A stretch of 63,148 nt of DNA, the filler included, from Collodictyon triciliatum (taxonomy: Eukaryota): the NCBI GenBank assembly GCA_043381765.1. It is 5 parts of 4 records of this genome, joined end to end, with 100 filler letters (N's around TTAATTAATTAA, not from the genome) between each part and the next. Parts side by side here need not be neighbours in the genome. Positions count along the whole stretch, not along the records: positions 1 to 19,162 come from JBHJMP010001307.1; 4 more parts are not named here. One strand, given 5' to 3'. Made by a program: the position numbers and the translations under genes. The notes below the pieces were generated by a model. That model ran no database searches, was not told the origin of the DNA, and saw nothing but the letters and a program-made list of their open reading frames with translations. Below are positions 1 to 56,612 of the stretch, one piece after another. The stretch's first letter is position 1; every line of letters begins with the position of its first letter.

Positions 1-631
1 GATGAACGTGAGCATCATGGGATTATTACATGATAGACAAACACCTGAGTGGGATTTGGCTTTAAGTGAGTCAAGCTTTATGATAAATTTTTGGAGTGAT
101 TTTTTTTCCCTAAGAGTATTAATCTATTCGTTATTTTCATCTGGAGAATTTTTCAATAATAATAATTTCTTAATTGGTAAAATAAATAGCGATATGTGAT
201 TGGATATTCACATCCATATTTGCACTTGAGGTCATTCTCAAGTTATTGGCTTTTGGAAGAAGTTATTTTCACGATAGTTGGAACATATTTGATATGACTA
301 CTGTTATTTTACCAATATTGGGTAAATATGATTTTCCGTTTCCAATTTTTTTAATGCTATTATTTGAAGTACGATAAGACGGTATTTTTATTTTTTTTTT
401 TAAAAAAAAAAGTAAGATACTTCTTGAAATTTTTTTTGTTAAGTATGAAATAAGTAAGTTTGAATGAATCCAAGTTCTCATCGACGTATTCACAGGATAT
501 TTAATTCAAGAGTATATCCCGAAAGGGCTTAATGTGTCAATCATTCGGGTATTTCGAGTGTTCAGAGCTATGCGCATATTTCGTTTGATAAAGTCAACAA
601 AAAGCATTTACAAACTCTTCAAAACCATGAT
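1..631 (+). CDS. Voltage-sensor domain (S1-S4) of Nav/Cav/CatSper-type ion-transport family, 5'-truncated; exons 1-65, 190-321, 496-631
   Basis: Spliced translation [110 protein letters not shown]. It shows S2 F..E...K, S3 WNIFD and S4 RxxRxxRxxRxxR, with phase-consistent GT-AG introns. Confidence 0.92.
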
Positions 632-843
632 GTAAGCCGTCATTTTTTTNNNNNNNNNNNNNNNNNNNNNNNNNNNNNNNNNNNNNNNNNNNNNNNNNNN
701 NNNNNNNNNNNNNNNNNNNNNNNNNNNNNNNNNNNNNNNNNNNNNNNNNNNNNNNNNNNNNNNNNNNNNNNNNNNNNNNNNNNNNNNNNNTAGTGTATAT
801 ATTGCTCATGTTTGTAATTTGCATTTGTATTTGGTGTGTTCAG

Positions 844-3800
844 TGGCCGCGGTGTAATATTAACAACCCCAAAGGAAGCCTTAAATTTTAGGAAAGAATC
901 AAATCCGTTCTATTCCAAGGCGAACTACTTTTTATTGAACAAGATGCAGTTCAAAGAATTCATTTTCGAGCGATTCCTGTGGACTTTCCTTAGCGCGTTA
1001 TCAGGTTAATTAATAATATTCCTGACTGAAAGTGTACTTTTTATTCTTATTTTTAAATAAAAAAATTCTAACATTTCATCTTAATTCGAAGATGAAGACC
1101 CAATTCCATATAAAGAGATGAATGCAGATCCAAAATTAGTTCGAATAACTTTTGATTCTTCTCTGCCAACCAAAAATGCTCTCTCATTTGTCTTTATTGT
1201 GGTAAAATATAATCCACAGCCTTTTCAAATCTTCAACAATCTAATTCATGCACATAAAATTTTGTTTAATCCAGATAAAAATATATGAGATAAATACTAT
1301 TTACGTTAAGACCTCACGCTCTTGAGAACCTTGCTCTTATATCTGTAATACATACCTACACTAGAACCCTCTTCAACTAGACGATTATATTTTTGCCACA
1401 GGCTCTAGAATCGAGAAGGAAAAGGTATAATGTATATTAGGGTTCAAATTTAAGAGTATTTTAGGCTCAGCTAAAATCAATTTTCTTTAAATCATGCACT
1501 TTCAAGTATCTTATACGGAAAAGAAGCAGGTTCATATTATTTTGTTTTTTCATAAGGAAGCCTTGGTCTCTCGAAATCTAATCTATATGAAACATGCAAG
1601 TGAAAAATTTATTGTATTAAAAACGCATTTTGAATTGATAACCAGGATGCACACCTCTCAGGATAAAATAGATCTTCAGTCGTGGAAATTATATTCGGTA
1701 TTTTTGGCACGCCAAAAAAATAAATATTGTTATCATAGGAGTATTGCATTTTGGGACATTGCCGTTATTATACGCACTGTTTTAAATTTTGTTAATTAGC
1801 TACTTCCGCTTGACTTTAAAAAAGTAAACCAAAAGTGTATCAGCAGCCCAAAATATAGTGACTTAATTGAGTCCATTTTCAAAGCAGGTACTATATATTT
1901 TCTTCCTTTACCACAAATAAAAGAAAGAATGCAATAAAACAGCATCTGAAAATTCTCGTACAAAATTGCACATCAGAAACGAATTACAAAAGATCATCGT
2001 CTTCTACAGAAGCTAATAGGATATTGGACATTACTAGTGTTTGTTCTGAGTCTATTTATATGTGTATAAAACGAGGAAATATGAAATTTCGGTCATGTGT
2101 GCGTGATCTTGGCTTCCATTATACATTTTCAAGTTTTCTTGACAATATTTCTTTAATCAGGTGTGTGAAGCAAGACTATCTATTGTAGGTGGATATCCAG
2201 GTTTTTTTTTTTAGACACACTCCAGGATTGATGTTACACGCTTAGAACTTAACCATACATGTCATGTTTTATTGAAATGCAGGAACGGGAAAATCGCGCT
2301 TTGCGTTAGATGCTGTGCTGAAATTATTGTCAAAACCTAAAAGTTCAACAGTAATAACATACAAGCATCAATTTTTGATACATATATAAATATAAATTTG
2401 CTATGCGACAGCTCTTGTAACCCCTCATGATTTTTTCACAATATTTACTTTCTATGACACTCAAAACTGTTTTAGAAACAGGTAATGATATTGTATCCAA
2501 ACCGAGAATCAATGCACGCATCACTTTCAGAGATTCAGAATCTCAAATCACACTTCAATCTGGAGTCAGAACAAGATTTTGTCATTCTGGTGAGGAAGTA
2601 TCATATCTTTTTCCCTTTTATTCGGTTCGAAGTGCATGAAGTATCATCTTGATAATTTTTTTGGATTTGAATTTTATCGTTTTTACCTATATTTTATATC
2701 CATGATTTTAAAATAATTTGCACAGAGTAATTCCATTTTAAATCATTCAAAAATATGCATAATTAGGATGACGCTAGCCAACAACAACCAGAAAGATTAT
2801 CCAAATACATATTAGACGCAGAAAATCTTTATGATATCGGCATTTTGGTACGCGATAAAATGAATTTAATGCATAGTCTGTTAAACGGATAATTTAATTA
2901 CCCATTCTACGATCCATAAAAGACAAAGAAAAATGAGCTTGAAGAAGAAAAAAAGCGACTTCATATGGTGAGGTCCAAGGACTACTCTTCTAATGATGAC
3001 CTTATGTATGAGAATCAATCGGTTGACCATTATCATATCTTTGATAAAAAAAAATTTTTTTTTTAAAAATTTTGACCTGTTGAAAGACATCGCATCATAC
3101 TGATGAGTATCTCTTTTTTCTTTTTTTTTTTATTTACATAGTCTCAGTCAATCTAATCCTGGGACGCTTTACATGCCATTGCGTAATTATACTATTGAGA
3201 TCACTCTACTCCAAACAACTTTGTTTTTGCTCTATTCAATCCGAAGAGTTATCCATCCCATACATCATGGGAAATCATGTGTTCATTTTAGTATTATTAT
3301 TGCTACTATTTCTTTAAAATATGAAAAGAGAAACTAGTAAATTAAGCAGCATACTTTTGACCAGGTGATGAACGGGTCATTAAGGAAAATATCATAAAAA
3401 TCGAACAGGTATGCACTTACCTCCCGTTTCTTTTATTATTCCCTTTTAATTTCTTGGCGTATATTATTTCATATAAATTTCTTCTGTGGCATTTTAACCA
3501 ATAGCTGGACAAACTATACTTTAAATAATTGTCGTGCTGCCAATTTTTAGAGTTTACATGACAGGAAAAGGGAATGTGTCAGGCTGACGATTTCAAAAGC
3601 TAGACTCATCATAGCTTGCATGAATTATTGGTAATTTCCTTTATTTTCATTATTGCAGAGAGCCTTCTTGCTTAATGAAATATGAGACGTGACAAATAAA
3701 AAAAAATAATCATATTTGGTCAAGCAAGAGCTCTCCAATAAAAATGAAAAATGTACATAAGGGACTTTTCTCAATATCCTTGGGAGGCCGAAAATCTATC

Positions 3801-6047
3801 TTCCATCGTAGTGGATGATGCTCACTTGGTGCGTAAAATAGCTGTAAATACTTGACTAATACCATCATGGTTTACTGTTTTTTCAAAACCATGCAGAATT
3901 AAATGTCATCCATCCCGGAGTACGATTTTGCTGAACTAATCGATTTCGATACAGATACCAGAGTTTGATGTTCTAGCAACAATTGGTGGACAGACAAATA
4001 AACTCATTTTAATTGGAAATAACTCCAACATGTATCGCCTACCAAATTTCGACAACGTTTCCACGTCAGCACATTATTCTATGCTCCATAGACTCCAAGT
4101 TTGTTGCTGGTTTAATGAATAAGAAAAATGAAAAAAAAGTGGAGTTATAAATAGTTCTCTATTCTTGTATATAATCATGCAATTTTGCTCCGTCGTGTGA
4201 ATTGCATACTTAATTAAACAATACACTCTTTCTTTGGCTATTAGGATCATGGACTACCTTCATATGCATTGCGGCATTCATATCCTATTCTTTTCTTTTT
4301 TTAAAAAAAATAATTAATATAATAGATCTAGTTATTGATTATACAGTCGAATTGTATTTCAAATTTCTTTAACAAATCCACGCTTCTTATGAACAAGCGC
4401 ATTTGGGATTTGTTTGGATTCTTTTTCCAAAATGTTTGTACTTCAGTTGTAGTTCGGATATATAAACCCATTTTCACTCCTTTTTTTTATTTTGCTAGCA
4501 TTTTTGTATATCCCCTTAATTGGTTGTATTGATTTCTTTCATATACTTCTGTATATTGCTAAATATACACGTCCATGGTGACATTAAAAGGAGGATGAAC
4601 CCCCTACATTTGAAAGCAAGGCTTACAAAGCAAAATCATGGGATAAATTTGGTACTGAAAAACAAATCATACTATAATCATTTGTCTCTTGCTTCCAATT
4701 CACATATCTCTCACATATCTTCCAGTTCACCTTTTTTTTACCAAACACAAAATTTTAATCACCACTATTGTCCTTTTTGCATATCTAGTGGTGATTGATT
4801 TCCCCGTGCATGAGGAAAAAGAGCAATTAGGTCTATTGGCCGGGTCCATAATTGGAAAGATAAAATCATGTTATCCAGTCAGTAGAACATTTGGCCATAA
4901 TAAATTACTTCTATTCATATGTATTTCTACGAAATTATGATTTCATTTGTGCTTATCGAGGTTGCATTACCACCTTTACAAATTCGCGAATCATTTAGGA
5001 TTTTAAGGTCCGTTTATGTGCGTCCCCAGACAGATTTGAAAGGAAGATTCCCCTCAGCCCCTCCTCCTCTGAGACCATCCTTTCGAAATCGGTTCGATAC
5101 ATTTATATTTTAATAAACATCTTTGAATCGAATAAAGGAAAAAAATATTTTAATAAACATTTTTTGTCGTAACAATTGGTTGTATTCAGTTGTAAATCCA
5201 TAAATCATACATTTTAGCTATCATATGATCTGATTTATTAATTATGCCATTCACTCATTCATCTCGAAAAATGAAACACACTCCAAATAGAATCATTCTG
5301 TTTGTGACGTATACCTTCATGTACACTTTCCAGTCCAACAAAGTAAAAAAAAAAAAATCGTTTTATTTATTTATTTATTTATGACATGCAAGCACAAGTC
5401 TAAAACAGTGGATACCGAAGCAGTTTTTTTTCTTTAAGTAAAGATCGTAACAACTTTAACTCTTTTTTTTTTCGGGGGGAAACTGAAGGAGAAACTTTCG
5501 GGTTCAAACTGAGAAGCGATTTTTATGACCCCATTCAGTCTCAACAATTCCTCTCCAAAACTCTGTGTGCCAGGTAATGTAGCTCTCCCATGCAAAAAAT
5601 TATATGTGCCTATCCTTTGTGCGCTCTAATAGCATCGGGACTATGCAAATCACAATAATGAAACATAGAATAGCTTTTGTTGACGGGAACCTGATTTAAA
5701 ATTATTATTTTTTTTTATACATCTATCTGAAACAGAGAGGCTGCCTTTGTTATCTGTGACTGCGCCCGTGCCATGCTGGACCCTTTTTGGGCCCAGATTA
5801 TAGATATTGCCAAGGATAACAAACTATGTAAACTTTTTTTTTAATGTGCCCTTGGATGGCAACCTAATGAATTAATTTTAGAGTCCCCATCTCCTTCTTA
5901 TATATTTCCTCTCGAGGAGAATTGATTGACGTTTTCTTTTCATGGTCGTGCACATCATCCTCCTGCAACAATAATTTAAACGTCGCTTACATTTATGCAG
6001 ACTATCACCACTCCCGCATCTCTGATTTTCTGGCAATGATGAAATGA
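844..6047 (+). CDS. Multi-exon SF1B (ZNFX1/UPF1/DNA2-like) helicase-fold protein with degenerate motifs; probably the same gene as the voltage sensor at 1-631
   Basis: P-loop RLSIVGGYPGTGKS (exons 2161-2200 and 2283-), motif Ia-like QVMILYPNRESM, Walker B-like SIVVDDAH (~3802-3825), EFDVLATIGGQTNKLILIGN (~3961-4020), SMLHRLQDHGLPSYAL, and C-terminal KTLCAREAAFVICD..PFWAQII. The last exon ends ...FLAMMK* at TGA 6045-6047. Some internal exons were not resolved. Confidence 0.75.
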
Positions 6048-6271
6048 TAAAAACATCCGATATTGGCTTCCTCCTTCTAGTACAACAATAAAGAAGAACG
6101 AAGAGTCAAACTGCAAGTGTGGCGATATCCGATATCCAGAAGTCAAAAGAAAAAAGTGGCGATGGGCAATTATCTGATATATTTTTCTATCATAAGGGTT
6201 TATCAGAAGCGGGCGCAGTTTTGAAGTGAATTGCAAAGAAAACAAAGCGCATCTTTATTGTGCCGGTAGAT

Positions 6272-8414
6272 TCACATCTTCGGTCGCGGTGCGGTTGGAT
6301 GACTGGCGAAGTAGTTCTCCATCGCCCTGCATATATGTAGTCAGCATAAGTAATCGGCAAGTTGGGCTAAGCCGATATTTCGATTATATTTCTTTGTTTA
6401 TTGTGATAAAATATTCAAAAGTTACTGAATCGGTTATAAAACTGTCTTCTTTTTTAGTCATTTTTTGTTGCTTTTTTTTGTATTTTTTTTTTTGTTCTAG
6501 ATGTTGAAGTTTGCCCTACCTCAAATTTTGAATAATGGAATAAATCCAATACATAAAATAAATTATTATAGATATATTCGAGCTCACTTTCTGACTATTG
6601 CAGAGAGCTCACTCCGAGATTTCGACCCATCGTTCTTTATCAAAGGAAGGAACGTTAGCTTCACCTATACAAGGTGTTTATGAGCAAAGTTTGCAGAGAA
6701 GTGAAAATCACATGGCATATGAACATGGAATTCTCTTAAAAAGTTGGCGGCAAAGTGAAAGAAGGCAAAATAATAGTGTGGTTACAAAATAAAACCATAA
6801 TAGAACAAAGCAAAAAGAAGACCCAATATTATATGACAAGGGGGGACGGGAAATGAATACGAACAGCGCCCGGCTTTGCAAACAATGAACGAGGCTTCCA
6901 TAAGTCAAATGCTCCATCAAGAATACATGGCACAATATCTACTCTGCTCTCTCTAGCCAAGTAGAATGGGCCCTTCTTGAATGGAATGAGCGAACCATTT
7001 TGGCTTCGTGTTCCCTCAGGACTCACTGCAACAGCGCTTCCGCTCTCTGATATCAAACGACCTGCTTCCCTGTAATGTTACAACGATGAGTGGCCTGCTT
7101 CAAACACAAACAAACAAACAAACAAACAAACAAACAAACAAACAAACAAACAAACAAACAAACAAACAAACAAACAAACAAACAAACAAACAAACAATAT
7201 AGGATATAATGTGCATCATTTTCATCGAATTCCATCGCTAAAATGCGAAAGACTACAACATCATATCTTTATTCTTGTCATCTTTTCTACCAAAAAAGAA
7301 AGGGAAAATGTATGCCATTATATTAGTCATACTTGATGGATTGCACAGCACTGTCCAGATTCTCGCGCTCAATCGGAATGTGGCCAAAGGCTCGCACAAC
7401 CCAACCAAAAACTGGGATTTGAAATACTGATTTCTTGCCAATAAACCGAGCTGTAAGAGGCGAATGCGACAGGATTATCAATGGGTCCAACTAGAGAAAA
7501 AAATCGAGGGTTGAATCGTTCCATTCCAGCCAAAAACAGAATGCACAAGGACCAATAGGGCTAACTTGAGTTTAGTTTCAAATATGGTTTGGCTCCGTTT
7601 CATTTCGTGTTATTTTCGGTTTTTTTTTTGTCTTAATATGCCTTTATAGGTCTTTTATATATATTATGAATGAAAGTCACAGCGATTAATAACCTGCGAG
7701 ACATGGTTAAACATCAAGAGACACGGCCGGTCGAGCGGAACATTCTCTTCTCCTTCCACTTTAACCTATTCAAATACATAAAAGTTCATAAAGTTTATAC
7801 AGCTTTATTCCCTTTGCTCGATTCAAAGTGATTGTTTAAACGGTTTATAAGAATTATTGAGAGAAAAGTGATTTTCACGTGATTAAGATGCCTCTCGTAT
7901 TTCAGTAGACATGTTTGTCATAGAAGCACTAAAAAAATAAAAAATAAAAAATAAAAAGAGGGTTCAATCTTAACCTCGACGCCCATCAATGAAAGAACTA
8001 CATAGCACCACTCGCTTTGGAATACATCGATGGGAAGATTGTTTTTGTGGACCCCAAAAACCCGCAGAAAGGCTTGAACCAACACGCTTGCTGGTGTAAG
8101 CTAATATGGGAAAGCAATTATGGTGTTGATAAAAAATAAAAATAAAAACGATAGGAATCATTTTATTTATTTTCGTCATCATATCGGAATAGATAGATGG
8201 ATAGTTGTATTAGAGTCTAGACAAAGCAATATAATTAACAGCAAGATATTTTCTAACTATAAAAACCAAAATGATAATTGAAGTTGAGAACCGCAAGGAG
8301 GCCAAGCAAAGACGGTACACAGAAAACAAGAGTTGCAAAGGCGCGTAGTGACTGTTCGGCTGTCCAACGTGATCGCTTTTGTGTTACTTCCTTCGTCTCT
8401 GACTTTTCCTCCAT
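6272..8414 (-). CDS. 1-acyl-sn-glycerol-3-phosphate acyltransferase (PlsC/LPAAT family), multi-exon
   Basis: Spliced motifs NHVSQLD (NHxxxxD), FIGKKS, GHIPIER, SPEGTRS, FKKGPFYLA, IVPCILDG. Start MEEKSETK at 8414; final exons VKLTFLPLI...SAIVRK and AMENYF...PKM* (stop 6272-6274). Confidence 0.9.
7107..7196. repeat. (CAAA)n intronic microsatellite
   Basis: Perfect tetranucleotide run. Confidence 0.97.
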
Positions 8415-8519
8415 CTCTATTTGTTTGGCGACAAGGGGCTTCGTATAGCTCTAAGAAGTTCTCAAACATGAAAAGCTATCTTCTAAGCTCCTTTCTCTCT
8501 GGTGGTCAGGAGTGAATTT

Positions 8520-8862
8520 ATTTTTCTTTTTTCTTTTTTCTTTTCTTTTTTCTTTTTCTTTTTCTTTTTCTTTTTCTTTTTCTTTTTCTTTTTCTTTTTC
8601 TTTTTCTTTTTCTTTTTCTTTTTCTTTTTCTTTTTCTTTTTCTTTTTCTTTTTCTTTTCTTTTCTTTTCATTTTCTTTTTCATTTTCATTTTCATTTTCA
8701 TTTTCATTTTCATTTTCATTTTCATTTTCATTTTCATTTTCATTTTCATTTTCATTTTCATTTTCATTTTCATTTTCATTTTTATTTTTATTTTTATTTT
8801 ATTTTTATTTTTATTTTTATTTTTATTTTTGTTTTTGTTTTTGTTTTTGTTTTTGTTTTTTA
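8520..8862. repeat. Compound hexamer microsatellite (TTTTTC)n-(TTTTCA)n-(TTTTTA)n-(TTTTTG)n
   Basis: Directly visible successive hexamer arrays. Confidence 0.95.
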
Positions 8863-9331
8863 TTTTTTCTTCGTTCTCTAGATTTTTTTTTCCTAGGCCC
8901 AGTAATTTCGAGACTTTGTCTGGATATACATCCCAGAAGATCGTGCGGACCTGACAGGTTTGCTTTAGATATGTTGGGAATACGGTGATAAAAAACTGCC
9001 CAAATTAGGCCCGCTCCCTTTCGTTTGTATTTTGACCTTGTTGTGCTATCGGCTTCTTTGGTCCTTGTGGGCCGAAGCTGTCGAGTCTATACTGTAGAGA
9101 ATTACTTCAAATCAAATGCTGTGCTTGCCTCTTCTTTTTCCTCACTCTTTCCAATCCCCAGTGCTGTGATTTATTCGCCTTTTTTTTTAATCTTAAAAAA
9201 TTTTTATGGAGTGGGAGCTGGCGAAGGTCTTTTGATTTATTTCATTCGCGTCCATGGTTCATCGTCCCCTTTGTGCTTTCGATGAAAGTGAAAGCTTTTG
9301 AATGGAAAAAAAAAAGTATCTCTCCACATCG

Positions 9332-12088
9332 TCATTCAGAGGATTCTAAATGACTGATACGGTAAAGGTATTTTTCCTGTTCTATTTGCGCCCGATGATT
9401 AATCAAACTCCGTTCTTGTGCTCGAGCCAGATTTATCTGTGCAAGGAGGTGGTTCAGTAGGTATTCCTCTGAAAACAAATGTTTTTCATGTTTCCTTGTT
9501 TATCTTTTTTAAAAGGAAAAATAAATAGAAGGCCGCTGCTGAATTATAATAAAATAACATAAAAAACTTGTAAAGTACCAAGTCTGACCTTATGAGTTTG
9601 AACAGTGTGAATCATGCGGTGGTATTCTTCCTCAAGGATGTCTAGCTGTGCAATACTTAATTCCTCTAATGAAAGACCGATGTAATGGTTCAGCGAAATA
9701 CCCATAATTTGAGCATTTTGGTGATGCTCTTCGTAGGTGATACTGTAGTCTGTTTCCTTCGGGTGGTCATGCGCATTCAAATCTGTCTTCGGCTCTGATT
9801 CACTTTCAAGTTTGGCTGCGCTTGTTGCTTTCTGCAGGGCTGGGTTTGGCCCATCTCTTATCCATGGATTCCCTTTTATTGTGGACACTCTATTTTCTGA
9901 AACCGAAGCCTGCGTAAAGGATGCCAACCTATCTATTTATTTTTTTTTCAATATTTATCTATATATTCAATCGAATAGAGTATATGTGACATCTAGCTAT
10001 AATTGCAAATTGTATGATTGTTTCGTTTACCACAACTAGTTACAACTTGTGTCTGCTTCTGGGAGAGTGGGTTATGCTTTGTACTTTTGGCAGAATGTGG
10101 CATAACGCCTGTCGTAATATTCCTTTTCGGTGCATGAGAAACGATATCCTGGATGTCCTTTTGTTTCCTTTGTGCTTTTTGTCTTCCAACAAGAATGAAC
10201 TCGCCATCTCTATCGATGTCAATATGTCGTGTCGATTTCTCTATCGATTGATTAATAGGACTTTGCAAGCTCGATTGATAGACATCGCTGTATACTTCTG
10301 GTTGCTTGTCTATGGAGATGACGAATTCTGATTGTTTTCGGCTGTGGGAAGGAGATGTTTCACCGGTATTATCGACACTATTCAAATTCATATCTTCAAT
10401 CCCCTCTTGCAAATTTAGTGTCTCTATACCACCGAAAGGTTTTTTCAATTTCTTACTTTTTGTATGCGATTGAATTTTCTCTCCTTTTTTGCCGAACCTT
10501 TTTGGGTCAGACAATACCTGAGATTCCCATTTCGCAAGAAGCTCCTTTCGCTGATTCTCTAAGGCGATATAACACGGGTGCAAACCTTTTTGTTTGTCTG
10601 CTCTTTTCAGAGATTTTGCAAGGTCGAGTGGAGATAGTTTAAACTTATTTACAATACTTATATCCGCACCATACTCTATAAGAATTTTCAGGCATTCCAC
10701 TGAAGCCGCTTCAAGAGCCAAATGAAGAGATGTGTTTCCTTCATTATTCTGAAAATTTTCATCGGAAACATAAATCCATAGTTAGTTTTATGAAGTTTTA
10801 CAATAAGTGGAACACGAAGTGATCAAAAGCTGTATTGTATGTGTGACAGAACATTATGAAACCCCTCACAGTCAAGTCTAAATATCTCTTCAAGGATGCT
10901 GCTGAATTCGACCGAATGTAGTCCATAAGTAACTTGGAAATAGAATCATTCCCTACGGAGACAGCACACATCAGGGCAGTCATTTTGTCTAATAAAAAAA
11001 AAAAAGTAAACAATACCCTGTCAGTTTGGAATGGAAATAATATTGAGTATATATTTAATGAATTGAAGGAGCGATGGTGAGGATTATGTATGAAATTAAC
11101 CGTTGTTCTGTTGCAGGACAAAATCCAATCCGATATTCAAAGAAAGAAGATATTGGAAACAATCCAGATGACTATTCTTTGCAGCCCACATTAACGCAGT
11201 ATCATTCAAGTTGTTTGTAAATAATTTTCTTTCAAGAGAGCCGGAGGACATCACGTGGCATACAAGAAGCTTTAAAATAGATACATTTCCTCCTGCGCAA
11301 GCCTGATACACCACTTAGTATGTATGAAGAATAAAACCACCATGTCATGAATGAAATGTGTAGTTGCAATAAATTTGCAATGAGTCATCCTATTAAAAAA
11401 AAAAAAAAGAACGTATGACATTACATAAATCGTCGTAGGAATGAATAAATAACATACCCACATTATCGCAGAGTTTCCTAATCTTGTTGTGTGGTAGACG
11501 TCTCCTCCCTGTCATATTTGTTAACGGCATAATTGATCAGATTGAAACGCGGGTACCACTATAAAACCAAATGAGTTGCTTGAAAATGACTGTAAAAGAA
11601 AACCTCAGAAAGGATTAACTCGACACACTGCAATTGCCCGTACTCCGCTGCGATTAATAGAGGCGACCGCCCGTCGACATTCTCTGCATTAAGAATCCAT
11701 CTATTTTTTTCATCTGCGCCGAGCAAAGAACGTGCCTGTAATTGTGGGAGAATCAAAAATATAATTTGTTGACCAGTTATCAGACCCATAATTCTACAAA
11801 AGATATGAAACGAGAAGAAAAAGAAAAAATAAAATAATAAAATTAAAAAACAGAAGAGAATTATGGATATCAAATACAACGGATGATATTTCAGTGCTTT
11901 CAGGTAGATGTTTGATAGAGAAAACTTAGATCGACAGGGTGGGTGGAAAACCGAACAAAATGTAAATAATAAAAAAAAAAAAAATAGTTAAGTCCAAGGT
12001 ACTATAATGAGGTTTTTGAGGAAGGTTCACAAACTCGACCGATGTTCCCTTGGGCCACTGCGTCGAAGAACCGAACGGCTGTATCCAT
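9332..12088 (-). CDS. Ankyrin-repeat protein with low-complexity/coiled-coil C-terminus, multi-exon
   Basis: ANK repeats GRSPLLIAAEYGQLQCVELIL, DTALMWAAKNSHLDCFQYLL, MTALMCAVSVGNDSISKLL, GNTSLHLALEAASVECLKILIEYGADI, LSPLDLA. Start MDTAVRFFDAV at 12088; last exon ...HLESSE*. Confidence 0.88.
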
Positions 12089-13428
12089 TTCCACTTTCCT
12101 ATAACCGATGTTTTTCACACATGACTTGGTTTTTTTTTTCAACTCTTTCAAAGGGTCAGAATCATAACGCGCATAAATGTGGTGATCGCACACTGAGACA
12201 GACTTGAGAAGAATTAAAAAAAAAACACACACACATACACACAATGAATAAGAAAAAGTCCGTTTTGCTAAGAAATAATGAACGCACTGAGAGACAAAGG
12301 ACACAATCTCCAGAATACAATATTATTACACTTGCGTTCTTTCCTTCTTCTCCCAACCCGCCACATTCTAAAGCCAAAAAAAAAACATGCAAGCGGTCGG
12401 AAAGAGGGATCCTGAGAAGGACGAGACCGGCGCCACAGCCCTTCCCCATGGGAATGCCTACTAACCGTACGAAAACTGAAAAGGCTGACGCAGCCAACGC
12501 AAAGAGCGAAAAGGTCACTTTACCACATCCTTTACAACACAGGTTCTGCACCGAGACACACCGACAAACAAGGCACCAGCCGCCACCGACCCGCGAATAC
12601 CACAAACCGATAATAAGACAGAGCGAGCTCTTAAAGACGAATAAATAATAATTTATTTTTTTTTTTGCTTTATTCGATTCAAAGGAAGGAAGGAGATTTG
12701 GATTATTTTTTTTACAGTCCGACATAGTTGTATGCGCCTTGGTTGAAAGCAATGATGCATGTCGGATAAGGGTGCTGGCCGGCTTGGTACGGAAGCTGGA
12801 TTCGCGGCTCATCACTACGCACCCAAGAGGGTTGAGAATAATAACTCTAAAGAGCTGCAACTACCGGGAGCCCTGAACTAGATTCGATTTGAGGCCAAAT
12901 TTTCCCCCAGAGACGAATTAACATACGGCCATCTCGCCATCCTCAAGATTAAAGAAGACTTCATAACCTCATTCTATTCCTATAATTGATTTATATTTTA
13001 TTTTCCATTTTGTAATATTAATTCACAAATTCAAAAATTGCAAACAAGCCCTTGCGTTGGCCAGACAGAGTCAACCCTATAAACCTGCCACCAAACATGC
13101 ATTTCAAAAGAGCATACCATCCGCACTTGCGGCGGTAATCATGTTGTTTGGGGCCGATATGTTGATTTTCAGTCGCAATGGCTATACGGTTGTCCTTTCG
13201 AACTCGTCGAATCAGCTCTCAGTGTTTTGTCTCGAATCACTTATATAAAAAATCTTTGTGTGTTTGTTTGCCACAAAGCGTATTTTTTGAAAGTCTCGGT
13301 AGATGCTTAATTATACATATATTAATTTTATGCAGTTTTATTTATTTTTTATCAAATTGACTTTTGACTAAAGTTTTATTAAAATTGGAAACTCGTTAGT
13401 TTTCTAAAGGAAAAAGTAAAACAAAGAC

Positions 13429-15290
13429 TTTCAGACGAAGAAAAGAAAACGCCTCGAGTCTGATAGTCTAAAGTCTGTAAAACCAGACTATCGAAATGTG
13501 AAAACATCTCGAAAGTCGATTGTAAAGAATGCGGATGACTATAACACAATCAACGATACGGGTTTATTGTGTCATAATTTGGTTACCGACACTTATCTGT
13601 TTGTAACATGTTACATATTGAAATCACAACAACCCCAACAATCGATGGAATGAAGTTTTTTTTTGTACGCTTCAAAGACAGTCGGAATAGTTTCACAAGA
13701 TAGACCCGCAAGTTTAAAAACAACCAGATATGAGAGATGACATGATGACTTTTTATCTCTATGATTTTTCGATTCCTTATATCCCAAGAAGAATGCTTTC
13801 CGTTGGTTGGAATGTCTCATGTAATGTCGTACTTGGCGAAGCAAATGTTAACAGCTTATCATAATAACATTAAGGAACATTTTGCAAAGAGGTTACTGCG
13901 CTTTATAAATCAAACAGCTCCTCAAGATGAGAATATGATGGAAGCTATTAAAAAGACAGAGTTACGAAAGTTAAAAAAAAGCCATCTTCAAGATTCTCGA
14001 CATACCGGAGCAATATCAAGAATGGGCTATAACGCATTTGCATCGTATCATTCCCAGCGATATTGTAAATGATATCAAATATGACGTCAAAGTCAATCCA
14101 AATAAGTACATTCCATGTCTAATTTACATGAATCGCATTTTTGAGGATGTTGGAACCAAACTGTTTCGACCAATCCCTATAAGAACTACCAATATATCAT
14201 GTCATATTACTCTAGATACTGCACGTTTGATAGATATATGAGTATTGTCTGGAAAAACATCGTTAATGAAGAATATATCAGGATGCAAAGAGACCCTATG
14301 GGATGATTATTTTTAAATGAAGAAGAGGGTCTTTCGTCAAACAGACTACAATTTCAAATACTTGATACAAACAGACAACTTGGCGGTATTATTATTGTTT
14401 GAAAAGGAAGGGATTTCAAATTTAAAATTCCTATTTAATCAAAAGACTCAAAAATATGTCGACAGATGAGCTTTCCGAAGAGCAGCTATCTTTATTAGCG
14501 ACAAAAAAGAAAGTCGGAGCGGACGCAGGCAAGTTTAATCTGGTTTACATGGTAGATGAGACAGGTAAGAAATTACGTTACACAGCACCCCAAACAAGAC
14601 ATGATAGCAAATCTCTTAAAAATAATAAAATACTCTTGCGCGAGAAAAAAAAAAGTACAATGCTTCAGATTTATATATGACGACAGATTTACAAAGTGCT
14701 GTTTCTTTCGGTCTCAGGACTTTTGAAGAGAATCAGCAGTTTGAGACATCAAGAGCATCTTTAATCGATTAAGAGACAGAACTGAGTAAACAACACTCAT
14801 GAGCGGTCGATTATGATAAATTTCGAAAATATGTATCAATGAAATCAAGATGCCACATAGAATTTTCACGATTTTATGAACAAGAAACTTTTCGAAAGAT
14901 GAGAAAGAGACAGTATGTTAATACAAAAAGAAGTGAACAGTTGTTTATGAACTGAATCGAAAAGACATTTGGCAAGGACGTTGTACTGGCGTATGGAGAC
15001 TGGAGCAGAAAATGTTCGATGAAGCATTTCATGGCAACAATCGGAAGAGGGTTATAAAAAAAATACCATCCAAACATTTTGAAACAGTTTGTGTAAATGA
15101 ATTTAGAACATCCAAGATATGCTGCAACTGCGAAAAAGAACTGGAACATATGAAACTGAAAGGAAATACGAAAAAAGGTTGTACAGTTGTCTCATAAGTA
15201 AAGAATACAATCGGTCAGAAAGCAAACAAAGTGTATTCTTGACAAGGGACATTCACAGCGATAAAAAATATACTCAAGAAAGCGCCTTTA
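13429..15290 (+). pseudogene. Fanzor1 (eukaryotic TnpB-like RNA-guided endonuclease) pseudogene
   Basis: Collinear fragments: KTSRKSIVK..INDT..CHNLVTDTYLF; SYLAKQMLTAYHNNIKEHF..RFIN; YDVKVNP..LIYMN..KLFRPIPIR..HITLDT; LIQTD; RuvC-I VGADAGKFNLVYM (D 14522-14524); VVLAYGDWSR; RuvC-II/zinc finger VNEFRTSKICCNC (E 15099-15101); RuvC-III FLTRDIHS (D 15248-15250). Several in-frame stops and frameshifts; no intact start codon. Confidence 0.92.
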
Positions 15291-15326
15291 ATGATTCAAA
15301 AATGCATACACCTTCCTCTAAAAAAC

Positions 15327-15490
15327 AGGCTGTTGGGTCTTTCCTGGCAGCCTTCACCACTACACAATCCTTGTGAAACAAGTGGTGAGACATTGGATAC
15401 TAGTGCACCAGGTTTACCAATCGAAAGATTTTATCATCCTTCTAGTGAGTAATAAAATGTGAAATACTTATTTGAAATGTTTATAAATAC
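15327..15490 (+). ncRNA. Candidate Fanzor omegaRNA (fRNA) scaffold
   Basis: Immediately 3' of RuvC-III: hairpin AGGCTGTTGGG-tcttt-CCTGGCAGCCT (15327-15353, 11 bp including G-U), hairpin TCACCACT-a-CACAA-tcc-TTGTG-aaaca-AGTGGTGA (15354-15388), and AATC-GAAA-GATT tetraloop (15419-15430). The position matches known Fanzor/TnpB RNA loci. Confidence 0.6.
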
Positions 15491-16102
15491 TGGATTGTTA
15501 GAATAAGGAATAGGATTTAAGCGTTGGCCACAAGGCGTCGCTTTTGTTTATGTGGTGCGAGTGGGCTGGTTGTCTGATTTTCTCTGTTGGACGCGCATCC
15601 CTTGAAGCAAAACGCATCTTTCAATAGATAAAAAAAAAATCTTAATTATCAACTTTTGGCGCATTAAGTAAGAATCGCCAAATATCGTCAAGATAAGAGT
15701 CTATGCCGCATCCAAGTGTGTCAATTTTGGCTATAGTGGGCGGGTAGTACAAATTTTTATTTTATTTTTATTAGTTCTCGCGAAGATTACCACACAATAC
15801 TCCAAGAGACACAGAAGGATATCGTCTGAATAGGGTTTCATTCCACTGTGTAACCGTATTTCAAATGTAAATTCTTCTTGCGTGGCCGATATAAAAACGA
15901 ATTCTGGACTTGACAGTAGGGACGATAAAAAGAATGAAGAAAATGGAGATGCACACCAACATTCACCAACGCACCACCATCCACCAAACAGAGAGATGAG
16001 AAAAGCAGCGAGGATAAAGAAAACAGCAGAAATTCTCGCAAAAAGAGGAGGGACAAGTGAATAGAAAAGGTATGAAAAAAACTAGAGTGTCGACCTAGGC
16101 CT

Positions 16103-19100
16103 TCAGTAGTGGGCCAAACCAGGGCGGATGGGTCCCGCAGAGCTCGCACGATATGATGTGCGCTGTTCACGGCCTGGTGTCGAGGAGGTAACCTCTGATT
16201 GGGGCTGATGTCTACTTGGCTCAGAACGGCGTCCAATAACATCACCTCTCCTTTTTTTTAAAAAAAATAATAAAATTATTCGATAATAGTAATTGAAATA
16301 GTAATAGCAATAGTAATAGTAATAGTAATAGTAATAGTAATAGTAATAGTAATAGTAATAGTAATAGTAATAGTAATAGTAATAGTAATAGTAATAGTAA
16401 TAATAATGACAATAACAATGATTGAATTGGAGCCAAAACAGCAAATAATTCACTTATTTGATTTGAAATAGGAAAGAAAAGTGTGGGTACGAGAAAATAG
16501 ATTATTTACAAAGACTGTCCCATTAACTGCCTCGAGTTCTCTCGATTGGCATCTGTATATTGGCTACGCTTAGTGCTCTCGATATTCTGAGCATGCTCAG
16601 CTTCCTGTCTCCAATACTCTGCCTGTTGGTCACAGAGGTTTATTTGTTGGCGCCTGCGTTCCTATTTTGTAGTAAAAGGTTTGAATCGTAGGGGACATAG
16701 TACAAGGAGAATAAATCCATATACTTTCTACATTCAACTGCTTTTTTTTTTATTTTTAGAAATCACAAGATGAACCTCTTTTGTCTTGAGTATGTGCTCG
16801 ACCGACAGCCGAGTATCTTCCCTGTCTCGCAGAATTTTCTGAATGCGACGAAGCTCCTCCTGCTTTAGCCGTCCTTCGTGAACTCGTCTCTCATTTTGGG
16901 CTCTTACTTCGTCCTATTTCCAAGTACAAAAAAAAAATATAAAAAAATTATCATCCATTAGTTTCGTTCGCACTTCAATGGGTCTGCTTGGCGCAGTACT
17001 ATAGCATACTTCGTGAGACTTTTCGTTAGCAGATTTGATGTACGGTTCGGTCACAGCAGTAGCCCGAGCAAAGCGCCATTCTTTCGCATACCGATCAACA
17101 TATTCCCTTTCGTTTAACTAACAATGGAGTATATTGAAAAATAATGGATTTTACAATTATTCAAGTCCTAGGAAATCCCTTGACTAGACATTCTGATTTC
17201 CAATCTTACATTTCGGTCGTAATTTTCAGCAAGCTTTTCCAGCATATCTTGGTCTTCCATCATTCCCCGCACGATTAATTCTTTCTTAACCCGAAACTTC
17301 TCTTCGTTTGAAGCCAGTCCTTGGAGTAAGTCGGCGTGCCTCTATATTTATTTAAATAAGAGTATTAAAGAAACAGCCATTGATGAAATGTGAAAAAAGT
17401 ATGTACAATCAATTGCATTAAGGCTTTATTATTAGAGTACCTTGTCAGCTTCGAGTTGATGGATTCGCCTTGCTCTCTATGAATGGAGAGATGCACAAAA
17501 AGGAGAAGAAAAGAGCAAATCAGTGTCACAATAGAATGACATATGATTATGAACTTCAGAAGACTCTGGAAGTATGCACAAAAGAATGAAATAGTCACAT
17601 TTAGATCGTCTTTGATAGACTCAGCCAACTCTTCTTGTTCATTGCGCTCCAAGCTTCTTTCCGTTGCCCTGCTTTTTACTTTGTAAACCATTTCATTTAT
17701 TCTAGCGGCGTTGTCTTGTCTCTTTTTTATCAAGTTGTTGATATCTTCTACATCCTCGTCGATCAAGCTGATGTCTCCTGTGGCTGTGTATTTTGCTGCC
17801 TCTTCCTCTTCGTGGTTGCGCTGCCTTCTCATATTATCATATTTCTCCTTGGACTAAAGTAAGGAAGGTATGAAAACTATGGGATAGTGAACTATCTCAT
17901 ATATGAAAATAAATATATATGCCATTAAAAATATTACTTAAATACAAACGTCTTATTTACACAATCCAAATATGACAAATCAAAATGAATTACCATCTCA
18001 GTGAGCCTCGAGTTCATCAAATTCTTTTGAAGAATAACCCTGCTTCTTTCATTCATAATATCAGCCATGTGAGCATTTGTGTCTGCATAAGAACCCATTA
18101 CCCAGACATCAGCAGCATCTGAAATAATGTTCAAGTTGGTGGTTAATTGTTTTTGAGAGTATATATCATAGATAATATGTTCGTGCGGCGATCATGGTTT
18201 AACTTCAAATTTACTTCTTCATTTATTTACATATAGTGAATAACTACCATCGGGATTCACATAAGTGTAATATTCAGCCGTGCTCCACGAAGATTGAGGC
18301 CTGCTTTGCTCTATCGACTTTGGAGTCTTAAAGAAGAATGCATAATTATATCCAGTACCAAGGGTAGGCAATAAATGTACAATTGCCTTTTATATCATAT
18401 CATCGAAATACAATGACGGGCGGCATGAGAGATATATGACAGACAAATAAAAAAAAAATACAGATAAGCTTCTAGAATATGATGTCCCCGGTCGGGAACT
18501 GATTGTTCCGTGGACCTTTCTTCTAAAGTCATGCTCGATTCTCTCTGATGTAATTGGGTAATATGATTCAGCTTTAGACAACAAAAAGAGAAAAGGCTGC
18601 GTGCCTGTAGTCAGTTCCAATTTTCGAATAGTATTAGTCACTTTGCAAGAAATAAGACAGTTACTGATACTTACGGACTCTTTTTTGGAGCATTTCAAGC
18701 TCGGCCATTGATATTGACGGAAGAGCACCCATTTCATCAACAGCCCTCTCGATGGCCTCTTTCAAAGCTGGCTCCATATTCTTTGGTTTGAAAACATAGT
18801 TCATGAGTTTTTTGGAACATATCTAATACATAATCAAAACTCCTCTTGCGTGATATAGAACGCGGCATATAGTAGCAAATAGAAGAAAAAAGAAAAAGCG
18901 CCGAATGTAAAATTATACCACCTATATAAAAAAAATTACAGAAAAATAGAAAAATAAAACCAACAAAAAGGCCCAGTGTATTGGTCTTGATAGGATTGGA
19001 GCTAGTAGAAGATTGAAAAAAAATGGAGAGAGAGGGAGAGGCAGAGAGATGGACTCTGCAGACAACTCACAGGTTTGACAAACTTGACTTTGAGGCGAGC

Positions 19101-19160
19101 GAGGAGCGACTCCTTCCGCCTCTCATGGCCAAGCAGCTGCTCCAGTCTGCCCCGGCGCAT
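16103..19160 (-). CDS. Multi-exon coiled-coil (E/R/Q-rich, trichohyalin-like) protein, possibly ciliary; 5' end uncertain
   Basis: Exons such as INNLIKKRQDNAARINEMVYKVKSRATERSLERNEQEELAE, QEELRRIQKILRDREDTRLSVEHILK, ERRRQQINLCDQQAEYWRQEAEH; last exon ...PGLAHY*. Confidence 0.6.
16311..16403. repeat. (TAGTAA)n intronic microsatellite
   Basis: Perfect hexamer run. Confidence 0.95.
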
Positions 19161-19162
19161 AT

Positions 19163-19262
19163 NNNNNNNNNNNNNNNNNNNNNNNNNNNNNNNNNNNNNN
19201 NNNNNNTTAATTAATTAANNNNNNNNNNNNNNNNNNNNNNNNNNNNNNNNNNNNNNNNNNNN
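19163..19262. other. Artificial 100-nt assembly spacer (N44-TTAATTAATTAA-N44)
   Basis: Six-frame stop linker at 19207-19218 inside an N run. Confidence 0.97.
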
Positions 19263-24116: not shown

Positions 24117-24487
24117 AGAAAAGGAGAAGAAAAAGAAAGAAAGAAGAGAGAGCCCCCGCCCAAGGACGATAAGGCCGAGCACCACAGCACACCACGTACA
24201 ACTTCCCCTCAACACTAGACAATAAAATCCCGACACAGCACACCTATAAGCCCAAAAAGCCAAGACCTGCCGCCCGCAGCATCCTCTGCATCCACATACG
24301 CGTGTTCGCATCTCCCCTCTTTCGCTTTCCCCCCTCCAGACCCACTCACCGAGAAAGCAAGACGGCGACTGCTGCTGCGGGAACCTTCCCACCCCAGACA
24401 GACCACTTGTTCCCAATGGGCGCGTTCCCAAGCGACGCATTCCTATGCAGCCCACAAGGCCGGTCTGCGGCTGCCAGGACACAGAAG

Positions 24488-24545
24488 CGACAAGGAGAAG
24501 CAACAAGGAGAAGCAACAAGGAGAAGCAACAAGGAGAAGCGACAA
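24488..24545. repeat. 13-mer tandem repeat (GCAACAAGGAGAA)x~4 upstream of the SPX-RING start
   Basis: Directly visible. Confidence 0.85.
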
Positions 24546-24561
24546 TAACCAGGAACAGAGG

Positions 24562-26406
24562 ATGAAGTTCGGGAAGCGGCTGGAGGCGGAGCGGGAGGCC
24601 GGGTGGGAGGAGCAGTACCTGGCATACACGGAGCTGAAGCGGCAGGTGAAGCGGCTGCGGGGGAGCGGGGCGGTGTCGGAGGGTGCGGAGGAGAGCGCGG
24701 TGTGGGTGCCTGTGCGGGGGTGGCTGGAGCGGCTGCAGGGCTTTGTGGCGTCGCAGGTGCGGGAGGGGCACGAGGCGCTGGGGGCGTGGGAGGCGGCGGG
24801 GGGCGCAGGGGCAGGGGCAGGGGCAGGGGCGGCGGTGCAGGTGCAGGTGCAGGTGTGGGCGGCGGTGTGCCTGCACGCGGACCGGCTGCAGCACATGGTG
24901 CACCTCAACCACCTGGGGCTGGCCAAGCTGCTCAAGAAGCGCAACCGCCACCTGACCCCGCTGGGCGCGCCGGCCCGCACGCTGGCACCCCTGCTTGCCG
25001 CCGGCGACGTCCTGCGCAGCCCCGCCCTGCACCGCCTGTGGGCCACGCTCGACCGCCTGGCTGCCCGCCTGCCTGCCGCCATCTACACGTGCGTGTGCCC
25101 GTGCGTGTGCCCCCTCTGCCTGCGCCCCGCCCGCCCGCCCGTCTGGCTGCGCTGCCGCCACCGCGTCTGTGTGGACTGCCTGGCCCACGTCCTGGCCACA
25201 GCCACAGCCACAGCCACAGCCACAGCCACGCCCGCCTGCCCCGTGTGCCGCGCCGCCCTGCCGCTCGACGACCCCGCCGCCGTCCGCGTCGACCGCAGCC
25301 TGGCCGAGTGTGCCCGCCGCTGCCTGCCCCCGACCCTCGCCGCCCTGCCGCTGCGCCTGGCCCTCGCCCTCCTCCGCGCCGACGCCGACGCCGACGCCCG
25401 CCCGGCCCTCCGCCCGCACGCCCACCCCACGCGCAGACGCCTCCTCTGGATCCAAGCACCATCACCATCACCATCATCATCATCATCACTATCACCATCA
25501 TCATCATCATCGCCCCCCACCGGCGACCTCCACGTGCCCGACATCGCCCTCTGCGTCTCGTCGCTGCTCGCCACCGCCACCGCCACCGCCGCATCGGCAC
25601 CGCTCGTGCCCGTCGTAGTCGTCGCCGACCCCGCGTGGGCCCGCTTCTACCGCAGCGACGTGCACGCCGCGCTCAACGTCTACGCCAGCGACGTCGAGGT
25701 GGTTGCGCGCATCGCCGCCAAGTGGGACCGCACGCGCTCCCGCGACCTGCCGCCCCTCTGGATCGTCCACTGGGCAGACGCCCGCCTCGGCCCCGACCGC
25801 ACCGCGGACATGGTGGCCGCCTACCGCAAGCGCCAGCGCCACTTCCCGGAGGAGGACTGGCTCGTCGTCGTCTCCTGCACTCCGCACCCCCGCCACGCCT
25901 GTGACCTCCGCCCCGCCGCCCCGCACCCCCGCCGCGCCTGTGACCTCCGCGACATCGGGCTCAAGGACGACATCCCCACCCTCGCCGGTCTCCTCTCTCC
26001 CACAGATCCAGATGCAGATGCAGACGCCGGTGTGTTCCGTGGCTCCTTCGAGCCGCTTGCGGACAGGTCGCCCTTGTGCAGCGCAGATGCAGCCGCAGAG
26101 GATTCGCGCCCGTCTTTGGGCGGCGGCGCTGCTGATCGTGCTGATGGCTGTCAAGGAGCGAATGCCCCGCTCACAGACTCTTCGTACGTCACGCTCTATG
26201 GCGATGCGGTCCTGGCGCTTCCGGGAAATAAGCGCAAATTGAATGCGGACGTCCTCTCCGAGTGGATCCGGATGCATATCTTGCCGGACGAGCACCATTC
26301 CCATTCCTACTGCCATGTCACCGGAAACACGCTCAGTCCGCCACTACCCTCCTGGGCAAAGAACAGTCCTCAGAACGACATGGAGGTGTTCTCCTTTGAG
26401 CTTTAG
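24562..26406 (+). CDS. Intronless SPX-RING (NLA/BAH1-like E3 ligase architecture) protein with an extra C-terminal region
   Basis: SPX N-terminus MKFGKRLE...WEEQYLAYTELKR, SPX C-terminus LNHLGLAKLLKKRNR, RING CPLC...CRHRVCVDC...CPVCR; one uninterrupted ORF to TAG 26406. Confidence 0.85.
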   Translation: MKFGKRLEAEREAGWEEQYLAYTELKRQVKRLRGSGAVSEGAEESAVWVPVRGWLERLQGFVASQVREGHEALGAWEAAGGAGAGAGAGAAVQVQVQVWAAVCLHADRLQHMVHLNHLGLAKLLKKRNRHLTPLGAPARTLAPLLAAGDVLRSPALHRLWATLDRLAARLPAAIYTCVCPCVCPLCLRPARPPVWLRCRHRVCVDCLAHVLATATATATATATPACPVCRAALPLDDPAAVRVDRSLAECARRCLPPTLAALPLRLALALLRADADADARPALRPHAHPTRRRLLWIQAPSPSPSSSSSLSPSSSSSPPTGDLHVPDIALCVSSLLATATATAASAPLVPVVVVADPAWARFYRSDVHAALNVYASDVEVVARIAAKWDRTRSRDLPPLWIVHWADARLGPDRTADMVAAYRKRQRHFPEEDWLVVVSCTPHPRHACDLRPAAPHPRRACDLRDIGLKDDIPTLAGLLSPTDPDADADAGVFRGSFEPLADRSPLCSADAAAEDSRPSLGGGAADRADGCQGANAPLTDSSYVTLYGDAVLALPGNKRKLNADVLSEWIRMHILPDEHHSHSYCHVTGNTLSPPLPSWAKNSPQNDMEVFSFEL

Positions 26407-26799: not shown

Positions 26800-26899
26800 N
26801 NNNNNNNNNNNNNNNNNNNNNNNNNNNNNNNNNNNNNNNNNNNTTAATTAATTAANNNNNNNNNNNNNNNNNNNNNNNNNNNNNNNNNNNNNNNNNNNN
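26800..26899. other. Artificial 100-nt assembly spacer
   Basis: TTAATTAATTAA at 26844-26855 within N run. Confidence 0.97.
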
Positions 26900-37302: not shown

Positions 37303-37402
37303 NNNNNNNNNNNNNNNNNNNNNNNNNNNNNNNNNNNNNNNNNNNNTTAATTAATTAANNNNNNNNNNNNNNNNNNNNNNNNNNNNNNNNNNNNNNNNNN
37401 NN
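37303..37402. other. Artificial 100-nt assembly spacer
   Basis: TTAATTAATTAA at 37347-37358 within N run. Confidence 0.97.
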
Positions 37403-56512: not shown

Positions 56513-56612
56513 NNNNNNNNNNNNNNNNNNNNNNNNNNNNNNNNNNNNNNNNNNNNTTAATTAATTAANNNNNNNNNNNNNNNNNNNNNNNNNNNNNNNN
56601 NNNNNNNNNNNN
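56513..56612. other. Artificial 100-nt assembly spacer
   Basis: TTAATTAATTAA at 56557-56568 within N run. Confidence 0.97.

Follow-up and report, generated by a model that had tools for sequence, protein, structure and literature searches.

Does the DNA assembled for the protist Collodictyon triciliatum hold an RNA-guided nuclease gene of its own, and if so, is that gene alive and where does it come from? We address this question for a stretch of 63,148 nucleotides (nt) of assembly GCA_043381765.1, hereafter the window, in which a broken gene of the Fanzor1 type lies at positions 13435-15376 on the plus strand. Among the TnpB-like RNA-guided DNA endonucleases, Fanzor1 forms the branch of eukaryotes and giant viruses. 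We find that the relic is very probably a single, solitary, decayed copy of a Fanzor1 gene, of the kind related to those of giant viruses, lying in DNA of eukaryote-like character.

Extent, motifs and lesions of the relic

The pseudogene is collinear with residues 1-645 of P0003, an intact metagenomic protein of 648 amino acids (aa). When P0003 was aligned to the DNA with a custom frameshift-aware script (BLOSUM62, frameshift penalty 14), identity was seen at 379 of the 635 aligned codons. A tblastn search with the same protein places its residues 2-642 on 13438-15364 in seven segments, with the frame changing in the order 1>0>1>2>1>0>2. When the relic frame 14629-15057 (stops written as X) served as a protein query, eight longer proteins were found, the best being P0003 (E=3e-44; query coverage 97%, identity 60%). 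All eight first protein matches carry the tag PF26935.1.

We built a family profile from alignment A1, which comprises P0003 and seven relatives (8 sequences, 621 positions). With this profile, hmmsearch matched nine of the 2013 stop-to-stop fragments of the window (E 5e-30 to 2e-7). All nine are on the plus strand and follow one another in profile order, from position 3 to 606 of 621; none of the other fragments matched at E<=10. Nine ordered matches, with none elsewhere, place the relic far beyond chance. Pfam searches with single fragments returned OrfB_IS605 (E=0.0058, fragment holding VGADAG) and Cas12f1-like_TNB (E=0.0064, zinc-finger fragment), in the correct order.

The motifs of the protein can be read one after another in a three-frame translation of 13380-15480. 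A basic N-terminal patch, KKRKR, lies at 13438-13452 (+), and relatives of the relic begin MKKRKR or MKKKK. This patch resembles a nuclear localization signal (NLS) and, by analogy with PMC10530073, may have acted as one. RuvC-I reads VGADAG at 14513-14530 (+), with its Asp kept at 14522-14524. The relic has Ala where the DPG motif has its Pro; D364, P365, and G366 are invariant in relatives. Further downstream, the YGDWSR block occupies 14992-15009 (+); AYGDWS lies at 14989-15006, and AYGDW is invariant in relatives. The block aligns to the GDWS/GNWS of the Spizellomyces and Parasitella Fanzor1 chains, and on the basis of this alignment and PMC10530073 we read the Gly of GDW as the site of the canonical TnpB RuvC-II Glu.

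The catalytic Glu instead appears in a shifted position, followed by the first zinc-finger CxxC, in VNEFRTSKICCNC at 15093-15131 (+), with the Glu at 15099-15101. The shifted-Glu pattern E-x6-[CH]-xx-C is present in this segment (NEFRTSKICCNC, 15093-15131), and E555, C562, and C565 are invariant among the relatives in A1. The second CxxC is degenerate, reading SKEY at 15197-15208 (+): Ser stands at 15197 and Tyr at 15206, so that both C587 and C590 (P0003 numbering), invariant in the eight aligned relatives, are lost. RuvC-III reads TRD at 15242-15250 (+), with Asp at 15248-15250. The residues past TRD, where the RD-x5-N motif would continue, align to relatives only after a +1 shift at about 15251, and then read ...KNIL. 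All three catalytic acids are kept in the relic (Asp 14522, Glu 15099, and Asp 15248).

The lesions, all given on the plus strand, are as follows. ACG (13435-13437) stands where relatives have their ATG start, so that M1 of P0003 lies opposite Thr. In-frame stops are TGA at 13651-13653, TGA at 14239-14241 (opposite Leu of P0003), TAA at 14314-14316, TAA at 14770-14772 (opposite Leu), TGA at 14800-14802 (opposite Cys), and TGA at 14953-14955; a further TAA, at 15055-15057, falls at a frameshift inside an A-run. The frameshift-aware alignment changes frame near 13717, 13772, 13974, 14461, 14639, 15055, 15177, 15251, and 15297, the third of these within an A8 run at 13972-13980. In all, the relic has lost its start codon and carries about nine frameshifts and six internal stops, with a seventh stop falling on a frameshift; the number of frameshifts varies with the penalties, and the tblastn path alone requires at least six. 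The copy is dead: its start is gone, its frame is broken, and half of its zinc finger is lost.

A preliminary description of this DNA, made from the sequence alone, had named these motifs, and all are present on the plus strand, in the order that it gave and collinear across frames by both three-frame translation and tblastn. Its statements that the three catalytic acids remain, that the second CxxC is degenerate, and that stops and frameshifts have killed the copy are borne out by the frameshift-aware alignment. Its extent, 13429-15290, located the gene correctly and stopped too early, as the relic continues for about 30 more codons.

Family membership and relatives

To which branch of the TnpB-like nucleases does the relic belong? 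Searched against PDB, the A1 profile finds the Fanzor1 proteins of Parasitella parasitica (9cf0, 2e-55), Spizellomyces punctatus (8gkh, 1.8e-52, covering profile positions 5-599 and almost the whole of the chain), and Guillardia theta (9cer, 2.3e-40). No other PDB chain, whether TnpB, Cas12, or any other, was matched by the profile at E<=1. Window fragments on their own give the same answer more faintly, with fragment P0002 matching 9cf0 at 7.2e-5 and 8gkh matched at 0.0066 and 0.018. The Fanzor1 identity proposed in the preliminary description therefore holds, as the profile leads to Fanzor1 structures and to no bacterial TnpB.

Fanzors have a different residue at the canonical RuvC-II Glu site and carry a Glu farther downstream (PMC10530073, 10.1101/2023.08.09.552727). 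The published Fanzor1 pattern, DPG...E-x6-[CH]-xx-C...C...RD-x5-N (10.1101/2023.08.09.552727), fits 83 of 84 relatives. Invariant features of the relatives include the DPG of RuvC-I, AYGDW, the Glu of NEFRTSK, the four zinc-finger Cys, and TRD-N-SA-NI. The read-through of the window copy fails the strict pattern and fits only a relaxed D.G form of it, because the relic reads DAG and is frame-shifted past RD. Of the complete CxxC...CxxC zinc finger, intact in 8/8 relatives, the relic has the first pair and has lost the second, and it has no open reading frame (ORF) across the gene. We consider the relic a Fanzor1 member by descent, not a working one.

The clade of the relic shares DPG, GDW/GNW, E-x6-C-xx-C, and RD with the Fanzor1 structures 8gkh, 9cf0, and 9cer. 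The likeness is distant and significant by profile only, and the clade proteins are shorter (about 560-660 aa at full length). Differences from bacterial TnpB (IS200/IS605, IS607) are the GDW that is read, after PMC10530073, as standing at the canonical Glu site, the length of the relatives (about 560-660 aa versus about 400 aa), the eukaryote-like context, and the lack of a TnpA domain among the flanking fragments scanned.

The family is very large and already characterized: a HMMER scan of 1.84 billion representative proteins returned 6562 clusters at E<=1e-3, of which 1343 reach E<=1e-30. Many members are viral. In IMG/VR, 371 stretches were matched by pattern, and 262 of them encode a relative, many on giant-virus contigs of metagenome-assembled genomes (MAGs) of up to 289 kilobases (kb). 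This agrees with the likeness to giant-virus Fanzor1s that the preliminary description had proposed. We kept the best 80 confirmed loci (L001-L080), whose proteins are 38-47% identical to P0003. UniRef A0A6C0CSH1 (P0005), annotated as ‘Transposase’ from a viral metagenome, is among the protein matches. The giant-virus Fanzor1 clade has the same architecture, invariant residues, and basic N-terminal patch as the relic; its copies are intact, and they have a structured 3' RNA region ending in GGTGTA that the window lacks or has lost.

The nearest relatives are P0003 and P0012, both intact metagenomic proteins of 648 aa with an MKKRKR start, collinear with the relic throughout. P0012 is 98.8% identical to P0003, and a fragment, P0085, is 82% identical to it. 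In blastp, the read-through of the relic is 56% identical to P0003 and P0012 and 34-40% identical to viral and other metagenomic members. Even these nearest relatives are still 40% divergent from the relic, and their contigs are only about 2.6 kb long. A metagenome scan for the DNA of P0003 and P0012 returned only a distant locus, L081 (21% identical).

A tree of 85 rows, reduced to 20 at 85% identity (quick method, LG+G4, unrooted), places the window read-through as sister to P0003 with an SH-aLRT of 100, and the pair stands apart from the viral groups. The terminal branch of the window copy is the longer of the two (0.58 versus 0.26), which fits relaxed constraint. As the tree is unrooted, it gives no indication of which way any transfer went. 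Taken with the viral relatives, the clade suggests exchange between giant viruses and cells.

An intact gene of this kind would encode a protein of about 650 aa with an NLS-like basic patch, REC and WED regions, and a split RuvC whose catalytic Glu would have moved to directly before the zinc finger. In other Fanzor1s, a guide RNA from the 3' end of the element itself is bound by the protein, and DNA matching the guide is cut beside a short target-adjacent motif (PMC10432273, PMC10530073). By analogy, the clade of the relic may carry out the same RNA-guided cleavage, of which the window copy is no longer capable.

Repeat unit, guide RNA and element ends

Is the relic alone, or does it belong to a family of mobile copies? 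A second Fanzor1 copy was found in the window neither by blastn nor by the profile. The metagenomic data comprise seven runs (X1-X7) from six studies, mostly labeled freshwater metagenome and none on record as RNA, which contain a fraction of 0.05-0.12 of the sampled words of 13054-15530. Contigs of X1, X2, X3, and X5 were aligned to 12500-16500 at a likeness of at least 80%; parts left uncovered are uninformative.

The 187 contigs of X1 are mostly diverged from the window: 8 show a likeness of 99% or more, 25 of 95-99%, 58 of 90-95%, and 96 of less than 90%. This spread indicates many diverged copies or relatives. Three stops of the window are sense codons in every covering X1 contig, namely 14314 (GAA by T>G, 6/6 contigs), 14953 (CGA by T>C, 5/5), and 15055 (CGA by TA>CG, 6/6, giving Arg as in P0003). 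On this comparison, we regard the relic as belonging to a repeat family with less damaged copies in freshwater communities.

Contig cover extends from about 12902 to about 15447 and falls beyond. The repeat unit is thus roughly 2.5 kb long, of which about 500 nt precede the frame and about 70-100 nt follow it; contigs of 150-260 nt are too short to fix its ends. The upstream part is a non-coding stretch at 12902-13434 (+) that is repeated in freshwater metagenomes and has no defined left end. X1 depth is 17-45 in the bins of 12902-13437, and an X5 contig bridges 13325-13482; the stretch is probably part of the same repeat unit as the relic. No Pfam domain was found in 12902-13434. An X1 contig joint, 12667>15753, was considered as an empty site and dropped, its shorter side being 21 letters of low complexity.

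Downstream of the frame, a non-coding 3' tail at 15377-15476 (+) is the expected site of the scaffold of the guide (omega/f) RNA and of the right end. What such a region looks like can be seen in the viral relatives. Alignment A2, made from 34 viral loci (e.g., L014:7725-7927), shows a conserved region that takes in the final 100 nt of the gene and the 100 nt beyond it. RNAalifold predicts 26 pairs in A2, 12 of them with compensatory changes. The conservation ends sharply after AAGGTGTAA, and 65 of 73 viral ORF rows have GGTGTA[AT] 41-136 nt past the stop. This modeled 3' region probably represents the right end of the viral elements together with the scaffold of their guide RNA. For the right-end word GGTGTA, no inverted upstream partner was found in 65 of 73 ORF rows.

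We built a covariance model, R1, from the conserved 3' region of the viral relatives. Its best matches in the window (E 0.11-0.25) lie elsewhere than at the 3' end and are chance-like. A likeness of the tail to the viral scaffold that had been seen by eye (GTCTTTC..., AGAC..., AAATGTGAAA) is not supported by R1, and we do not claim it.

Two candidate pairs of element ends were also rejected as within chance: an inverted repeat of 12977-13002 with 15451-15476 (26 nt, 73% complementary, AT-rich) and a direct repeat at 13054 and 15521 (19 nt, 79% identical, AT-rich). Among the viral loci, only about one pair in four shows conservation upstream, which we take to reflect related viruses, not the element. 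The genes upstream of viral Fanzor1 copies vary, with a cysteine-rich repeat protein at one locus and lysine-rich proteins at another (L014:4363-5853 on the minus strand, L056:4629-5926), which fits a Fanzor element inserting at varied sites of viral genomes.

Two published cases resemble the relic, as judged by their descriptions. A non-autonomous element of the ascovirus SfAV likewise has a Fanzor gene without a transposase of its own (10.1101/2023.08.09.552727), and a Fanzor fragment on Chlamydomonas chromosome 17, related to integrated giant-virus copies, is degraded like the relic (10.1101/2024.09.03.611062). Unlike these cases, the window has no detected inverted ends or target-site duplication.

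Surroundings, origin and meaning of the relic

The window consists of five pieces joined by four identical linkers, N44-TTAATTAATTAA-N44 (an all-frame stop linker), at 19163-19262, 26800-26899, 37303-37402, and 56513-56612; adjacency across these joints therefore carries no meaning. Ordinary gaps lie at 650-790 and 36189-36219. The relic sits on the first piece, 1-19162, which has long microsatellites, few long ORFs, and three minus-strand ORFs with ankyrin repeats that differ in frame (9993-10781, 11099-11314, and 11562-11987). The latter appear to be one ankyrin-repeat gene, 9993-11987 (-), split into at least three exons. Their database matches are ankyrin proteins only, at 31-44% identity over 16-27% of the query, with the repeats alone aligned. 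From this make-up we judge the DNA around the relic to be gene-poor and eukaryote-like in layout, not bacterial.

Beyond the relic, tRNA and Rfam searches of the window gave no matches. A 69% GC island at 24250-26406 (+) stands amid DNA of 29-49% GC and holds an ORF with an SPX-domain start and a C3HC4 RING finger; several frames are open there owing to composition. Simple repeats include a GAA/GA-type run of more than 500 nt (8451-9004) and an ATT/ATA-type run of about 170 nt (16245-16505), and poly-purine tracts adjoin several piece ends, e.g., 36130-36280. On another piece than the relic, 62398-62877 (+) is an exon of the triose-phosphate/nucleotide-sugar transporter family, 79-80% identical to residues 97-253 of a Diphylleia rotans protein in EukProt. 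This exon makes a diphyllatean (CRuMs) source of the assembly plausible. The protist genome of the preliminary description is thus upheld insofar as the relic's piece is eukaryote-like, and not as regards taxonomy, for which the one hint lies on a different piece.

Could the relic be a passenger of viral DNA, left by an integrated giant virus whose other genes have decayed or been lost, rather than the product of transposition in a cell? The more distant relatives retrieved as DNA all lie on IMG/VR contigs, many of them from giant-virus MAGs of up to 289 kb, and the relation of the Chlamydomonas fragment to integrated giant-virus copies (10.1101/2024.09.03.611062) lends this origin a precedent. 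The neighborhood of the relic, however, tells against it. The 1515 ORFs of the 80 viral loci gave 391 window matches, of which one lies outside the relic, and that one is an ankyrin repeat. A domain scan of 68 flanking fragments (11-18.5 kb) found no transposase, TnpA, or viral hallmark domain, its sole matches being one ankyrin and one sub-threshold helicase; the ankyrin repeat aside, no viral hallmark or virus-like neighbor gene was found on the 18-kb piece examined. Moreover, the many diverged short copies in X1 fit a dispersed repeat better than one insertion. We consider a viral remnant unlikely.

Sequencing or assembly errors in a gene that is intact in the organism, such as homopolymer errors of long reads, are a far less probable explanation. 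At least three frameshifts do fall in or beside A-runs (A8 at 13973, A10 at 14645, and A8 at 15055), and possibly a fourth (A6 near 15170). But contigs of other runs that are 100% identical to the window reproduce the breaks: an X2 contig at 13969-14228 spans the A8 frameshift, including the shift at 13974; an X5 contig at 14216-14366 spans the stops at 14239 and 14314; and X3 contigs at 14591-14741 and 14743-14893 span the A10 frameshift (14639) and the stops at 14770 and 14800, respectively. Other data sets thus contain two of the frameshifts and four of the stops, making assembly error unlikely. These runs contain so few of the words of the stretch that they are unlikely to be the source data of the assembly, and substitution stops, an ACG start, and two lost zinc-finger Cys are atypical of read errors.

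Scarcely credible is a gene kept functional through introns, a variant code, or programmed frameshifting. Some protists do reassign stop codons, and introns can occur in Fanzor genes (PMC10530073). The stops of the relic, however, include TGA as well as TAA and lie opposite Leu, Phe, Leu, Cys, and Lys of P0003; two kinds of stop opposite differing residues do not correspond to a reassigned codon. Nor are the breaks introns, as the protein alignment crosses each of them without additional DNA. Conserved Cys and the Pro of DPG have been lost as well. We give practically no weight to a bacterial TnpB on a contaminant contig, which the weak Pfam matches to OrfB_IS605 and Cas12f1-like_TNB might suggest, because in PDB the profile matches Fanzor1 chains only, the relic shows the shifted Glu and the GDW block, long microsatellites and split ankyrin exons occur on its piece along with few long ORFs, and relatives sit on giant-virus contigs.

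Several observations weigh against a decayed Fanzor1 copy of a protist lineage. Both Pfam matches of the window fragments fall under curated cut-offs. Identity to the nearest intact protein is only 56-60%. The Diphylleia-like exon, the one taxonomic hint for the assembly, is on another piece than the relic. The repeats at plausible element ends are within chance. The fold of 15230-15530 is no better than that of shuffles (z -0.75), and R1 has no match at the 3' end, whether the whole window or 15200-15560 alone is searched. The guide RNA of the relic, if it was ever like the viral one, appears not to be recognizable now.

A wider reading can be offered only tentatively, and we rate it as possible but doubtful: within the giant-virus Fanzor1 clade, the window copy and P0003 would form a branch of their own that is borne by cells, existing in many copies as an element of freshwater protists of the diphyllatean (CRuMs) group, with some copies intact and with a guide RNA of their own that is not like the viral one, marking gene traffic between giant viruses and a deep lineage of eukaryotes. 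Intact copies in this lineage are likely. The literature searched, which did not extend to supplementary host tables, yielded no report of a Fanzor for CRuMs, diphyllateans, or Collodictyon.

On its own, the relic is of little weight, being a dead copy of a very large, known nuclease family. It does show that the genome from which the assembly was made has been home to a distinct Fanzor1 branch, only 56-60% identical to the nearest intact protein and 34-40% identical to giant-virus copies, and that freshwater communities harbor less damaged copies of this branch. P0003 and other intact members are candidate compact editors, of which hundreds of similar ones exist already. The relic is chiefly useful in pointing to an undescribed branch and, possibly, to a new host lineage. 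If the host is a diphyllatean, the host range of Fanzor1 would extend to CRuMs, and the relic would provide a further case of nucleases shared by giant viruses and protists.

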